A stretch of DNA of 64,000 nucleotides from Escherichia coli (GTDB lineage: Bacteria; Pseudomonadota; Gammaproteobacteria; Enterobacterales; Enterobacteriaceae). This document shows positions 3,928-40,733 of the stretch, one piece after another. Below the pieces are notes generated by a model that had not been told where the DNA came from, ran no database searches, and saw nothing but the letters and a program-made list of their open reading frames with translations. The first letter of the stretch is position 1, and every line of letters starts with the position of its first letter. The stretch is from the NCBI RefSeq assembly GCF_013122565.1, contig NZ_CP053258.1; one strand, given 5' to 3'. The position numbers were made by a program, and so were the translations under genes.

Positions 3928-5181
3928 GTGAGTCACTGGGCTACATTCAAACAAACAGCAACAAATTTATGGGTGACCCTACGGCACGACATGCTCGCGC
4001 TGGCCGTCTTTTTAAATGGATTGCTTATTTTTAAAACAATCTATGGTATGTCGGTCAATTTGCTTGATATTTTCCATATTAAAGCATTTTCAGAGCTGGA
4101 TCTCTCCTTGCTGGCAAACGCCCCACTATTTATGCTCGGCGTATTTCTTGTCCTGAACTCCATTGGCTTACTGTTCCGGGCAAAGCTCGCATGGGCAATC
4201 AGTATCATTTTGTTGTTGATAGCGCTAATTTACACCCTGCATTTTTATCCGTGGCTGAAATTCAGTATTGGATTTTGCATTTTTACGCTGGTGTTTTTGC
4301 TGATACTGCGCAAAGACTTCTCCCACAGTAGCGCCGCAGCCGGGACAATTTTCGCATTTATTAGTTTCACGACGTTACTGTTTTACTCCACCTACGGTGC
4401 GCTTTATTTAAGCGAAGGTTTTAATCCGCGAATAGAAAGTTTGATGACCGCGTTCTATTTTTCAATAGAAACCATGTCAACCGTCGGCTATGGCGATATT
4501 GTCCCTGTTTCTGAGTCAGCACGATTGTTCACTATTTCGGTCATTATTTCCGGCATTACCGTTTTTGCCACCTCTATGACCTCAATTTTTGGTCCGCTTA
4601 TCCGCGGGGGATTCAACAAACTTGTAAAAGGAAACAATCATACAATGCATCGTAAAGATCATTTTATTGTTTGCGGGCATTCGATTCTCGCCATCAATAC
4701 GATTCTGCAACTGAATCAACGCGGACAAAACGTAACGGTTATCAGCAACTTGCCTGAAGATGATATCAAGCAACTTGAGCAACGCTTAGGCGATAACGCT
4801 GATGTTATCCCCGGTGACAGTAATGACAGTTCAGTATTAAAGAAAGCGGGAATCGATCGTTGCCGGGCCATTCTGGCGCTGAGTGATAACGATGCAGATA
4901 ACGCGTTTGTTGTACTCTCGGCAAAAGATATGAGCAGTGATGTTAAAACAGTTCTCGCCGTCAGTGATAGCAAAAACCTGAATAAGATTAAGATGGTACA
5001 TCCGGATATCATTCTCTCACCGCAACTGTTTGGCAGCGAAATTCTGGCGCGAGTTTTAAATGGTGAAGAGATTAATAATGATATGCTCGTTTCAATGTTG
5101 TTGAACTCCGGTCATGGCATTTTCAGCGATAACGATGAACAAGAAACGAAAGCTGACAGTAAAGAATCGGCGCAAAAATAG
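3928..5181 (+). CDS. kch: Kch potassium channel homologue (417 aa, GTG start; track ORF begins at 3910)
   Basis: TM core with pore signature TVGYGD and C-terminal RCK/TrkA-like domain; sequence recognised as Kch. Confidence 0.93.
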   Translation: MSHWATFKQTATNLWVTLRHDMLALAVFLNGLLIFKTIYGMSVNLLDIFHIKAFSELDLSLLANAPLFMLGVFLVLNSIGLLFRAKLAWAISIILLLIALIYTLHFYPWLKFSIGFCIFTLVFLLILRKDFSHSSAAAGTIFAFISFTTLLFYSTYGALYLSEGFNPRIESLMTAFYFSIETMSTVGYGDIVPVSESARLFTISVIISGITVFATSMTSIFGPLIRGGFNKLVKGNNHTMHRKDHFIVCGHSILAINTILQLNQRGQNVTVISNLPEDDIKQLEQRLGDNADVIPGDSNDSSVLKKAGIDRCRAILALSDNDADNAFVVLSAKDMSSDVKTVLAVSDSKNLNKIKMVHPDIILSPQLFGSEILARVLNGEEINNDMLVSMLLNSGHGIFSDNDEQETKADSKESAQK

Positions 5182-35621: not shown

Positions 35622-37418
35622 ATGCTTAAACGTTGTCTCTCTCCGCTCACCCTGGTTAATCAGGTTGCGCTTATTGTGTTGCTTTCTACTGCTATTGGAC
35701 TGGCAGGGATGGCGGTTTCTGGCTGGCTGGTGCAAGGCGTTCAGGGCAGCGCCCATGCGATCAACAAAGCGGGATCGCTGCGCATGCAAAGTTACCGTCT
35801 GTTGGCGGCAGTGCCATTAAGCGAGAAAGACAAACCCTTAATTAAAGAGATGGAACAAACGGCATTTAGCGCCGAGTTGACTCGAGCAGCAGAACGAGAC
35901 GGACAACTGGCGCAATTACAGGGTTTACAAGATTACTGGCGTAATGAACTGATCCCTGCGCTGATACGTGCACAAAACCGCGAAACGGTGTCAGCGGATG
36001 TCAGCCAGTTTGTTGCCGGGCTTGATCAGCTGGTATCTGGTTTTGACCGCACCACGGAAATGCGCATTGAGACAGTGGTACTAGTCCATCGGGTAATGGC
36101 GGTATTTATGGCACTTTTACTGGTGTTCACTATTATTTGGTTGCGGGCGCGACTGCTACAACCGTGGCGGCAACTGCTGGCAATGGCGAGTGCCGTCAGC
36201 CATCGCGATTTTACCCAACGCGCGAACATCAGCGGGCGCAACGAAATGGCGATGCTTGGAACTGCATTGAACAATATGTCTGCAGAACTGGCCGAAAGTT
36301 ATGCCGTACTTGAGCAGCGGGTTCAGGAGAAAACCGCCGGGCTGGAGCATAAAAATCAGATCCTCTCTTTTTTATGGCAGGCCAACCGCCGATTGCATTC
36401 CCGCGCCCCGCTGTGTGAACGCCTGTCACCTGTACTCAACGGCTTACAGAATTTAACCCTGCTACGTGATATCGAACTGCGGGTGTATGACACTGATGAT
36501 GAAGAGAATCATCAGGAGTTTACCTGCCAGCCAGATATGACTTGTGATGATAAAGGCTGCCAGCTCTGCCCGCGCGGCGTATTACCCGTTGGTGATCGCG
36601 GCACGACCCTGAAGTGGCGGCTGGCTGACTCTCATACGCAGTACGGTATTTTGCTGGCGACCCTGCCGCAGGGGCGTCATCTTAGCCATGATCAACAACA
36701 ACTGGTGGATACCCTGGTTGAACAACTCACCGCCACGCTGGCGCTGGATCGCCATCAGGAACGTCAGCAACAGTTGATCGTGATGGAAGAGCGTGCCACC
36801 ATTGCGCGCGAACTGCATGATTCTATTGCCCAATCTCTCTCTTGCATGAAGATGCAGGTGAGTTGTTTACAGATGCAGGGCGATGCGCTGCCAGAAAGCA
36901 GCCGCGAACTGTTAAGTCAGATCCGTAACGAACTGAATGCATCCTGGGCGCAGTTGCGTGAATTGCTCACCACATTCCGCTTGCAGCTCACCGAGCCTGG
37001 ATTACGTCCGGCGCTGGAGGCGAGTTGCGAAGAGTACAGCGCCAAATTTGGCTTCCCGGTGAAGCTGGATTATCAATTGCCGCCTCGCCTGGTGCCTTCG
37101 CATCAGGCAATCCACTTGTTGCAAATTGCCCGTGAGGCATTAAGTAACGCCCTCAAACATTCGCAAGCGAGTGAAGTCGTGGTGACGGTGGCGCAAAACG
37201 ATAATCAGGTCAAACTGACCGTCCAGGATAACGGCTGCGGCGTGCCTGAAAATGCCATCCGCAGCAATCACTACGGCATGATAATAATGCGCGACCGTGC
37301 GCAAAGTTTACGAGGCGATTGCCGCGTCCGCCGTCGTGAATCAGGTGGCACCGAAGTGGTGGTCACCTTTATTCCCGAAAAAACTTTCACAGACGTCCAA
37401 GGAGATACCCATGAGTAA
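35622..37418 (+). CDS. narX: Nitrate/nitrite sensor histidine kinase NarX
   Basis: 598-aa ORF with two TM helices flanking a periplasmic domain, HAMP, and HisKA_3/HATPase ([11 protein letters not shown]). Confidence 0.97.
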
Positions 37419-38061
37419 TCAGGAACCGGCTACTATCCTGCTGATTGACGATCACCCGATGCTGCGAACTGGCGTAAAACAGCTTATCAGTATGGCACCA
37501 GATATCACCGTGGTTGGCGAAGCGAGTAATGGCGAACAGGGTATTGAACTGGCGGAATCTCTTGATCCCGATCTGATCCTGTTAGATCTCAATATGCCCG
37601 GCATGAACGGTCTGGAAACGCTGGATAAACTGCGCGAAAAGTCCCTCTCAGGGCGCATTGTGGTATTCAGCGTCTCTAACCATGAAGAAGATGTGGTCAC
37701 CGCACTGAAACGCGGCGCGGATGGTTATCTGTTAAAAGATATGGAACCGGAAGATCTGCTGAAAGCATTGCATCAGGCAGCTGCTGGCGAAATGGTATTA
37801 AGCGAAGCATTAACGCCTGTTCTGGCCGCCAGCTTGCGCGCTAACCGTGCCACTACTGAGCGCGATGTTAACCAGTTAACCCCACGCGAGCGCGATATTC
37901 TCAAGCTGATTGCCCAGGGTTTGCCGAACAAGATGATTGCCCGCCGCCTGGATATCACCGAAAGCACAGTAAAAGTGCACGTCAAGCACATGCTGAAGAA
38001 AATGAAGCTCAAGTCTCGCGTGGAAGCAGCGGTATGGGTGCATCAGGAGCGCATTTTCTGA
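37411..38061 (+). CDS. narL: Nitrate/nitrite response regulator NarL (216 aa)
   Basis: [24 protein letters not shown] receiver domain plus LuxR-type HTH; start overlaps narX end by 8 bp. Confidence 0.97.
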
Positions 38062-39456
38062 TTACGGTTCCCAGCGCAGTTCGTCGTTTGACAATGCATC
38101 GAACGGTTCGACAAGCGTTAGCGTGATCTCATTGGAGGAGACACGCTGCCCCTGGTTATCTTCCACCACCACCGACAATCGCCAGTGATTGCTCGCCCCT
38201 TCCCCGTTCTGCCAGTCAGGCATGATCAGCGTCCAGCCCTCCGCGCTGTTGGCTTGTGCGCCCGGCGTCAAACTTAATATCTGCGTATCGCCCTGCCAAA
38301 TCAGTTGCCGAATACCGTAACGACTGCGGATTTGTAATTTCAGCGGCACTGTTTCGCCAGGTTTTAGATCCCACGGCGGTGTCGCCAGAAACACCGTTAA
38401 CGTTTTTCGCTGTCGGTACTCAAGAGTCGGTAGATTATTTCGCTGCGGATTATCATAGCGACTACCACGTAACGACTGACTTTCGGCAACCTCGCCCGCA
38501 GAAAGTTGTTTTTTGAGCGGTACACCAAAGCGGTAATTAAGATTCAGTCCGAGGTTATTTTGATTTTCGCCACTTTCACCCTGTTTATGCTGGGCCGTCA
38601 CAGTGACTAATGGCACAGGGGTGTAATTTAATCCCAGACTCAACGCGACGGGATTGTGATAACCCGTACCAGAGTTAAACAAATCAACACGCTCACCAAA
38701 ATACTGTTCTACCCTGACACTGGTATTGAGGTGTTGATAGAACGGCATGCGCATCCGGGCTGTCAGGTCATACCCGCGCGCCATCCGTTGTTCCTGCGTG
38801 GCTGTCTGTTCATGCCATGCAGCAAACGGCTGATAAAAGTTTGCCGATAGTCGCAAATATTCGCCCCACGCTTCGGCACCAAAGCCCGCTCGCTGAAGAT
38901 TTTCGTCCAGCAAGTTGTCATAAAAAGTGTTATAACCCACCAGCCAGTTGCCGCGCGCCCAGCGTTGCCCAACGCCCACATTGCTCACCAACCCATCATC
39001 CTGCTGAGTAAGACCAAGCTGGCTCCAGGTGAGATAACGATCATTATCTTGTAACGGCACAAACCAGCTTCCACGACTGCCGGTGAAATGTCCTTCGTTA
39101 TCCACTTTGACGTCAACACTGGCATTTCCCCACGGTGATAGCCAGGACTCTACGTGCTGATTAACCTGTTGACTAAGCGCGTCGCGGACTTTTCCCAATG
39201 CGAAAGCTTTTGCCTGCTCGCCAGTATCCAGCCCGTTATCATTCATACTGGTTTCGCCGAAATCTTTCACAATTTCAGCAAAGTGTTTTTCCCCATCATG
39301 ATTTTCGGGAGCCATGCCTAAATCCGGCAGACCATCATTGTTATTATCAAAGGGATTTGCCGCTTTTTGCTCGAAGGTAGATTGTGCGTTAGCTGTACCG
39401 CCTGCTACAAGCAAGAGTAAATAAAACGGGATAATGCGAGGAACGAAACGGCTCAA
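38062..39456 (-). CDS. ychO: Invasin/intimin-family outer membrane protein YchO
   Basis: 464-aa ORF with signal peptide and intimin/invasin-like beta-barrel region; synteny. Confidence 0.85.
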   Translation of the reverse strand: MSRFVPRIIPFYLLLLVAGGTANAQSTFEQKAANPFDNNNDGLPDLGMAPENHDGEKHFAEIVKDFGETSMNDNGLDTGEQAKAFALGKVRDALSQQVNQHVESWLSPWGNASVDVKVDNEGHFTGSRGSWFVPLQDNDRYLTWSQLGLTQQDDGLVSNVGVGQRWARGNWLVGYNTFYDNLLDENLQRAGFGAEAWGEYLRLSANFYQPFAAWHEQTATQEQRMARGYDLTARMRMPFYQHLNTSVRVEQYFGERVDLFNSGTGYHNPVALSLGLNYTPVPLVTVTAQHKQGESGENQNNLGLNLNYRFGVPLKKQLSAGEVAESQSLRGSRYDNPQRNNLPTLEYRQRKTLTVFLATPPWDLKPGETVPLKLQIRSRYGIRQLIWQGDTQILSLTPGAQANSAEGWTLIMPDWQNGEGASNHWRLSVVVEDNQGQRVSSNEITLTLVEPFDALSNDELRWEP

Positions 39457-39478
39457 AACGTCGGTAACTTCCGGTAAT

Positions 39479-39518
<40 letters not shown>

Positions 39519-39519
39519 A

Positions 39520-39623
<104 letters not shown>

Positions 39624-39640
39624 GAATACAGGAGTAAATA

Positions 39641-39994
39641 ATGCAAAAAATCGTGATCGTTGCCAATGGCGCACCTTACGGGAGCGAATCCTTGTTTAAC
39701 AGCTTGCGGCTGGCCATTGCGTTACGAGAGCAGGAGAGCAATCTGGATCTGCGTCTGTTCCTCATGTCTGATGCGGTCACAGCCGGGTTGCGCGGGCAAA
39801 AACCAGGGGAAGGCTACAACATTCAGCAAATGCTGGAGATCCTTACCGCTCAGAATGTACCGGTGAAATTGTGCAAAACCTGTACCGACGGGCGCGGGAT
39901 TAGCACACTTCCTCTTATTGATGGGGTGGAAATCGGTACTCTTGTGGAACTGGCGCAATGGACGCTGTCAGCCGATAAAGTGCTCACATTTTAA
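39641..39994 (+). CDS. ychN: DsrE/DsrF-like protein YchN
   Basis: 117-aa ORF MQKIVIVANGAPYGSESLFNSLRLAIAL recognised. Confidence 0.9.
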   Translation: MQKIVIVANGAPYGSESLFNSLRLAIALREQESNLDLRLFLMSDAVTAGLRGQKPGEGYNIQQMLEILTAQNVPVKLCKTCTDGRGISTLPLIDGVEIGTLVELAQWTLSADKVLTF

Positions 39995-40037: not shown

Positions 40038-40733
40038 TCAGGCGAATCCCGGCCGTAACACACCATCCGGATAATTCTCCGCCAGCAGTTTTTTTACCGA
40101 TACCAGCAAATCATTCAGCCCATCGTCCTGCATTCCCAGTTTGATAAGCTCCTGTTCCAGTGAAAACAGGTATTGTGCGTTGGTTCCCAGCGGACCGCTC
40201 GCCGCCGCAATCAACGGCGCGATGACCTGAGCGCGAGTGTCAGATTCATATTCTGGATGTCGCGGGTCCATAATAAACACAATGGCGTTTACTGTGCGTC
40301 CATCATCAAGATCAAGCTGACACCAGGTTGGCAGATAACAGCCGGTAATCATCTCGCGCTTCCACAACAGGGTTAGTTCCTGCTCCAGCGTCTCTTCTGG
40401 CAGTCGATAGGCGACGCCTGTGGTGCGTCCGCCCTCTTTCAGTGCAAGCATCCGTCCCGGCTGGTGCGCAGTCCCGCGCCCGGCGGTCAGGCGCAGGCAA
40501 AACGCGCGATGCCATCCAACCAGTGTACCGGTGCACGACTCGGTAAACTCCAGTGCCGGATTCCACATCAACGATCCATAACCGAAGATCCACACCGGTC
40601 CCTCATCAGGTCGACAAGCCAGCGTCGCCGCCAGCGAAGCCGCCCGTTGTTCTGCTGACCATAAGAGTGATTCTTCAATGGCACCAAATGCCGTTTTACA
40701 ATCGGCATTCATCAAGAAATCACGCGTTATCAC
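40038..40733 (-). CDS. chaC: Glutathione-specific gamma-glutamylcyclotransferase ChaC (231 aa, GTG start)
   Basis: YGSLMWNP motif and recognised ChaC sequence. Confidence 0.9.
   Translation of the reverse strand: MITRDFLMNADCKTAFGAIEESLLWSAEQRAASLAATLACRPDEGPVWIFGYGSLMWNPALEFTESCTGTLVGWHRAFCLRLTAGRGTAHQPGRMLALKEGGRTTGVAYRLPEETLEQELTLLWKREMITGCYLPTWCQLDLDDGRTVNAIVFIMDPRHPEYESDTRAQVIAPLIAAASGPLGTNAQYLFSLEQELIKLGMQDDGLNDLLVSVKKLLAENYPDGVLRPGFA

Follow-up and report, generated by a model that had tools for sequence, protein, structure and literature searches.

How does an operon end its transcript when the next gene, facing it, leaves no nucleotide in between? This question is raised by the narX-narL and ychO transcription units of Escherichia coli, which converge without a spacer in the 64,000-nt stretch of DNA analysed here (contig NZ_CP053258.1 of assembly GCF_013122565.1; hereafter the window, whose positions are used throughout). 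We propose a model whereby RNA polymerase transcribing narXL would run past the narL stop codon into the untranslated antisense strand of ychO, the RNA made ~58-87 nt downstream would fold into a stem-loop that is not followed by a U-run, a C-rich, G-poor stretch next to it would serve for the loading of Rho, and transcription would stop ~150-250 nt past the narL stop. The whole layout of the narXL 3' end would thus lie inside the last ~220 nt (~70 codons) of the ychO coding sequence. Transcripts of ychO would in turn run into narL antisense and, being untranslated there, would probably be released by Rho without a specific site; the resulting 3' overlap would be a by-product. We consider this full explanation, in which narXL is terminated by Rho inside ychO via an embedded hairpin and C-rich stretch while ychO transcripts are ended non-specifically, to be likely. 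Its core, that Rho terminates narXL inside ychO, is very likely in view of published bicyclomycin data, while the odds that the hairpin and the C-rich stretch themselves act as termination elements appear to us, from sequence comparison, evenly balanced.

The anatomy of the junction is straightforward. The narL gene (37411..38061, + strand; so named in RefSeq) codes for a 216-aa response regulator, starts with ATG at 37411 and stops with TGA at 38059-38061; ychO (38062..39456, - strand) codes for an inverse autotransporter of 464 aa, starts with TTG and has the C-terminus ...ELRWEP, its TAA stop codon being the complement of 38062-38064. Positions 38059-38064 accordingly read TGATTA, and the gap between the genes is 0 nt. 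The first-pass annotation had described the two genes as convergent with abutting stop codons, and its coordinates are exact: identical ends for both genes are found in the RefSeq annotation (Prokaryotic Genome Annotation Pipeline, PGAP) of a genome that is 100% identical, and the annotation of K-12 MG1655 agrees (ychO 1273784..1275178, narL 1275179..1275829). Pfam matches support both identities, with Response_reg (E 6e-31) and GerE (E 4e-23) giving NarL its receiver and helix-turn-helix domains, and with IAT_beta (PF11924, residues 64-341, E 6e-103) marking YchO as an inverse autotransporter. The C-terminal ~120 residues of YchO, whose codons contain the hairpin and the C-rich stretch, are without a Pfam match. 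Upstream, narX (35622..37418, + strand), the first gene of the narXL operon in the open reading frame (ORF) list and the RefSeq annotation, overlaps the start of narL by 8 nt at 37411-37418 (ATGAGTAA), a typical translational-coupling junction inside an operon.

A consensus terminator scan finds no site between 37993 and 38315 and hence none at the junction; the nearest terminator-like sites, at 38315 (+ strand) and 37993 (- strand), are both intragenic, and shuffled sequence would be expected to contain as many sites as the region does. On neither strand does a fold of the ~200 nt around the junction exceed the stability of shuffles (z +0.2 and -0.2), and Rfam gives no match at E ≤ 1 within 37300-39700. 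Neither the scan nor the folds of either strand give any sign of an intrinsic terminator at or near the junction. With neither a spacer nor such a terminator, each transcript has to end within the opposing gene. The earlier statement that no terminator separates the genes holds for the intergenic space, but not beyond it, where the hairpin and the rut-like (Rho utilization) stretch inside ychO make a plausible dedicated terminator of narXL.

Published evidence for the end of transcription on the narL strand comes from Adams et al. 2021 (eLife, PMC7815308, Supplementary file 2), who list a Rho termination region at MG1655 1274961 on the - strand as 'antisense ychO'. In an indel-free alignment to MG1655, the peak of this region is equivalent to ~38279 on the + (narL) strand of the window, 218 nt past the narL stop. 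Upstream and downstream reads number 101 and 6 without bicyclomycin and 649 and 408 with it (Rho score 10.6, p 5e-14), so that read-through rises about tenfold, as for a Rho-dependent terminator. This region, catalogued only under the name of the gene that it is antisense to, is most simply read as the narXL terminator, and the same study lists none antisense to narL. In addition, ExcludonFinder (Nucleic Acids Research 2025, PMC12288877) counts ychO-narL as one of 165 convergent pairs with overlapping transcripts in half or more of 58 MG1655 RNA-seq samples, which is the transcript overlap expected of an excludon. The expectation from the sequence that transcripts end inside the opposing gene is borne out for the narL strand by the bicyclomycin-sensitive region and the overlap listing, whereas the transcriptional interference that the first-pass annotation also envisaged is at most a possibility. 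Overlap as such is the rule in E. coli, because 276 of 370 convergent operons have overlapping 3' ends, by 286 nt on average (Conway 2014, PMC4161252).

Two features of the narL-strand RNA may make up the embedded signal. The first is a 30-nt hairpin at 38119..38148 (+ strand), +58..+87 past the narL stop, with 11 pairs and no U-run (UAGCGUG-A-UCUC, loop AUUGGAG, GAGA-CACGCUG); the opposite strand encodes the YchO residues QRVSSNEITL. It folds at -16.9 kcal/mol for 58 nt and is a candidate for a stem-loop that protects the 3' end of the narXL mRNA or pauses polymerase. The second is a C-rich, G-poor, rut-like stretch at 38141..38239 (+ strand), +80..+178 past the stop, with 44% C and 18% G and a C/G ratio that reaches 2.4-2.6. 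Its peak 78-nt window holds 34 C and 13 G, which puts it in the top ~0.9% of + strand windows of that size in the 64 kb, and it is rut-like in composition only. Across species, the C>G peak lies near +95 in most cases.

This arrangement matches a class described by Dar & Sorek 2018 (PMC6061677), in which Rho-dependent transcripts carry a stable stem-loop with no U-rich sequence after it and a rut site immediately downstream. At narL-ychO, likewise, a stem-loop of 11 pairs with the tail CCCCUGGUUAUCUU stands directly before a C-rich, G-poor stretch, with bicyclomycin-sensitive read-through further on (compare PMC6061677). The locus differs from that class in that the unit lies inside a convergent coding sequence rather than in an intergenic 3' untranslated region (UTR). 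Intrinsic terminators, by comparison, have a G+C-rich hairpin directly followed by a U-run; the E. coli tail CCCCUGGUUAUCUU has 4 U in its best 8-nt window, which starts 3 nt past the stem, and the consensus scan is silent here. The likeness to intrinsic terminators is closer in some other genera, as judged in a comparative set with one genome per species, comprising 80 narL loci of which 62 have a convergent ychO homologue directly after narL. In Klebsiella indica (CTTTTTTA), Pluralibacter and Phytobacter (CCTTTTTC), and Salmonella (ACCTTTTTC), a T-run follows the hairpin, and the two together look like an intrinsic terminator inside ychO. Runs of at least 5 T occur in 21 of 39 hairpin-bearing species, and we rejected a conserved intrinsic terminator as the explanation since the U-run varies among genera.

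Because the hairpin lies in coding sequence, we compared its folding with that of sequences encoding the same peptide. In this test, the codons of 13-codon windows were replaced by synonyms in line with the ychO codon usage of the species concerned, and the narL-sense strand was folded. The E. coli hairpin segment alone folds at -14.1 kcal/mol versus -7.5 ± 3.6 kcal/mol when recoded, and the median z over 63 sequences is -1.2; because recoded segments still fold, the peptide itself already favours a weaker hairpin. Extended to the whole gene in the 60 species with an intact ychO ORF, the scan gives the hairpin window the lowest mean z of all 228 windows (-1.51, with a median of -2.18, against a background of -0.20 ± 0.35). 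In half of these species (30 of 60) it is among the top 5% of windows in their ychO, and in E. coli it outranks all others of the 233 windows. As a negative control, the same scan of the narL antisense strand yields no comparable window.

Base pairing is likewise retained across species. When 13 distant sequences are removed from the 63 aligned, leaving the 50 closer species, 85% of cells in the alignment of the stem pair, compared with 24-52% in slid controls. Double changes occur at 5 pairs versus 2.1 in shuffles, and 0 of 500 shuffles reach the observed value. One stem pair joins two third-codon positions, those of Glu GAG and Val GTC, and is C-G in 37 species, U-G in 2, U-A in 1 and G-C in 1. 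The codons concerned are biased: Glu is GAG in 35 of 37 species and this Val is GTC in 33 of 44, although GTG prevails among the Val codons nearby.

A lineage that has lost the gene gives an independent view. In E. albertii (locus L004), nearly all of ychO is deleted (approximately window 38206-39475), and a 144-nt remnant of its 3' end still adjoins narL (L004:4652-4790, equivalent to window 38062-38205). Within this remnant, the spacer from the narL stop to the hairpin has 16 mismatches in 56 nt relative to E. coli, whereas the hairpin is identical at 31 of 31 positions (Fisher p 0.0004 versus the spacer); a 13-nt deletion just past the hairpin breaks the ychO frame, and the C-rich stretch has 4 mismatches in 40 nt. 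Retention of the hairpin in what is now non-coding DNA points to a function independent of YchO. We tentatively suggest, at somewhat less than even probability, that a narXL 3'-end element composed of the stem-loop and the rut site has long been maintained inside ychO by selection among synonymous codons and outlives its host gene, as in E. albertii. If so, each strand of the last ~70 codons of ychO would carry a message of its own.

Several observations weigh against the model. The hairpin is only moderately stable (z -1.3 versus dinucleotide shuffles) and folds equally well on the ychO strand; G.U combinations outnumber A.C (49 versus 32), and good pairing is seen in as many species on one strand as on the other, which leaves the strand undecided. 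RNAalifold returns zero consensus pairs both for all 63 sequences and for the 50 closer ones, codon conservation of the hairpin window ranks only 53rd of 422, and Pseudocitrobacter, Cedecea, Serratia and others lack the hairpin. The C>G peak does not exceed in strength those elsewhere along the ychO antisense strand, which has more C than G overall (ratio 1.14), so that no claim of selection for a rut site is possible. The contrast within the E. albertii remnant is weaker than its p-value suggests, being partly explained by the C-terminal tail of YchO, a variable part that the spacer encodes and that was under weak constraint even before the loss. As for the transcripts, Rho scores of Adams 2021 (PMC7815308) were computed from 800-nt windows, so that the Rho region is placed only to within a few hundred nt; their Term-seq tables contain no narL or ychO 3' end at MG1655 12748xx-12753xx, and narL-strand reads in lysogeny broth (LB) are low. 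The Rho signal on the narL strand could also in principle stem from an antisense promoter and not from narXL read-through.

Several of these points lend weight to an alternative that explains the hairpin by the YchO peptide QRVSSNEITL and common descent. Rho would then need no dedicated element and would terminate untranslated antisense RNA at any place where it can load. Such an origin would account for the recoded sequences that still fold at -7 to -12 kcal/mol, for the silence of RNAalifold, the modest stability and the several genera without a hairpin, and for a C/G peak that is unexceptional within its gene. It fits less well with the first rank of the hairpin window among 228 for structure beyond the coding requirement, with double changes in excess of all shuffles, with the preference of the paired third positions for GAG and GTC next to Val codons that are mostly GTG, and with the perfect preservation of the hairpin in the non-coding remnant of E. 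albertii. We regard it as a credible explanation, if the less probable one. Rho-dependent termination of narXL inside ychO is part of both accounts, and we rank each of the remaining alternatives as less likely than such termination. The pair could be a regulatory excludon, with narXL and ychO made mutually exclusive in expression by polymerase interference or by RNase III cleavage of double-stranded 3' ends. Like other overlapping convergent operons and excludons (PMC4161252, PMC12288877), it has complementary 3' ends, it is named in the 2025 'excludome' list of MG1655 (PMC12288877), and its tight junction is conserved over many genera. Most such pairs, however, are separated by an intergenic spacer, of 95 nt on average for excludons, and end at terminators that leak or are shared, whereas the 0-nt gap of narL-ychO makes overlap obligatory. 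A regulatory effect is no more than a possibility; the listing relies on coverage thresholds, which any 3' UTR would pass as overlap at such a gap, and ~75% of convergent operons overlap anyway (PMC4161252). We found no data on reciprocal expression or RNase III processing for narXL and ychO, polymerase collisions should be rare given the low narL-strand reads in LB, and E. albertii and other lineages have lost ychO while retaining narXL. An excludon is thus unlikely.

Collision-driven bidirectional termination (Ju 2019; bioRxiv 10.1101/2022.10.23.513370), in which converging polymerases pause at a hairpin element and dislodge each other without Rho, has been described for hundreds of E. coli pairs and shares with narL-ychO the convergent genes and a near-palindromic hairpin element, able to form in both RNAs and lacking a U-run. 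The elements of that class are described as Rho-independent and intergenic (bioRxiv 10.1101/2022.10.23.513370), while at narL-ychO the element lies inside one gene and read-through increases about tenfold with bicyclomycin. Moreover, the hairpin is 19-29 codons inside ychO, so that stopping there would truncate the ychO mRNA, and the mechanism works best at high polymerase traffic, whereas coverage here is low. We consider it quite improbable. An annotation artefact, in which the stop codon or frame of ychO is wrong or ychO is not a real gene, is barely conceivable: we found no evidence in its favour beyond the poor characterisation of ychO and its annotated TTG start, while the ychO ORF, frame and C-terminal end align across 60 species, the IAT_beta match is strong (E 6e-103), K-12 and PGAP annotations agree, and a mutant phenotype with complementation has been published (PMC4787180).

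What ends transcripts coming from the other side is less apparent. No dedicated element for ending ychO transcripts is visible inside narL, and for that reason Rho acting on untranslated antisense RNA is taken as their default. We considered one candidate for a matching ychO terminator inside narL, a hairpin on the ychO strand at 37993..37977 with ACUUUUAC, and rejected it because it has no structure beyond the coding requirement (mean z -0.67 to 0, rank 14-71 of 102, in ychO-bearing and ychO-lacking species alike).

How unusual, then, is a junction without a spacer? Within the window, 13 annotated convergent pairs have gaps of 0, 39, 43, 45, 52, 54, 54, 99, 143, 148, 157, 183 and 302 nt, and narL-ychO is the sole pair without space for a hairpin. 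The junction is not a quirk of one strain, because 5384 of 5423 E. coli records match the 121 nt around it at 99% identity or more. Among the 62 ychO-bearing enterobacterial species, 57 have a gap of at most 11 nt or an overlap. The gap is 0 nt in 12 species (Escherichia, Salmonella, Yokenella, Trabulsiella, Kosakonia) and 1-11 nt in 19 (Enterobacter, Lelliottia and others), while 23 species (Klebsiella, Pluralibacter, Cedecea, Serratia, Mangrovibacter, Rouxiella) have a 4-nt overlap through CTAA, CTAG or TTAA, 3 have an overlap of 48-54 nt, and 5 (Citrobacter youngae, C. werkmanii and Kluyvera) have a gap of 21-46 nt. Short tail-to-tail overlaps of genes through complementary stop codons (CTAA, CTAG, TTAA) are a general pattern. 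The 23 species follow it, with the ychO stop lying on the last narL codon and its stop; E. coli differs in having the non-overlapping 0-nt version, TGA|TTA. To judge from this comparison, the spacer-free junction is old and stable. If the end signal of narXL lies within ychO, such a junction could therefore persist over long evolutionary time.

Loci that depart from this pattern are also instructive. Several ychO-less genera have strong hairpins 5-50 nt past narL, for example Hafnia (AAAAGCCCG...CGGGCUUUU) and Dickeya, and two other ychO-less loci have post-narL stems of -28 and -41 kcal/mol. By locus, strong hairpins within the first 5-60 nt are seen in L073 (Hafnia), L059 and L064 (Dickeya), L071 and L075, in contrast to the loci that have ychO. 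A loose hairpin-plus-T scan, passed by 77% of ychO loci and 50% of non-ychO loci, is too permissive and yields candidates only. The widest spacers, 43-46 nt, are those of Kluyvera spp. (L022, L035, L037; bases 4652-4700), where a long inverted repeat (cttaattgtcgtgacagg...cctgtcacgcacaattaagg) fills the spacer and gives the impression of an additional hairpin element inserted between the two genes. The 48-54-nt overlaps are found in an uncultured Enterobacter-like metagenome-assembled genome (L016) and in Shimwellia and Entomohabitans (L054, L055), in which the ychO frame has lost its usual stop and runs 48-54 nt into narL, a true coding overlap if the assemblies are correct. In Citrobacter amalonaticus (L014:4652-6625), ychO is collinear with that of E. 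coli at 74% identity and the frame that reaches the stop is only 96 codons long, reflecting either a pseudogene or a sequencing error. Of the ~5430 E. coli matches to the region, 13 are on records labelled plasmid, and in E. coli MS 115-1 (H15) the narL side of the query is missing. One pair along from ychO, the convergent genes ychN and chaC are separated by 43 nt, and a published Rho region, 'antisense chaC' at MG1655 1272857(-) (Rho score 12.3), falls at approximately window 40383 (+ strand), inside chaC (40038-40733, - strand), on the assumption of collinearity with MG1655; this appears to be the same phenomenon as at narL-ychO.

The abutting junction is thus real, evolutionarily old and ordinary, and its basic facts are already public in annotation and transcriptome catalogues. 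It fits known biology, as one more case, not described before, of a familiar kind. What we add is the age of the junction, the hairpins of ychO-less loci, the embedded layout of hairpin and C-rich stretch, and the rank of the hairpin together with its survival in E. albertii. Convergent transcription with overlap is well established, as are Rho-dependent ends with protective stem-loops, and our model poses no challenge to current understanding.

The model has a practical consequence, in that a clean deletion of ychO would remove the place where narXL transcription ends. In a ΔychO mutant of avian pathogenic E. coli (APEC), the homology arm (window 38012-38061) ends exactly at the narL TGA, and the phenotype was called pleiotropic (PMC4787180). 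This phenotype may have been confounded by altered narXL 3' ends or by read-through into the resistance cassette and ychN. Plasmid complementation was reported for the mutant (PMC4787180), which argues against a large narXL effect. More broadly, narL-ychO illustrates that many Rho sites catalogued as 'antisense' by convergent genes may be ordinary operon ends. If the embedded hairpin is functional, it would show clearly how a non-coding signal on one strand can limit the choice of codons on the other, and would help to explain how a spacer-free tail-to-tail junction has remained stable across many genera.

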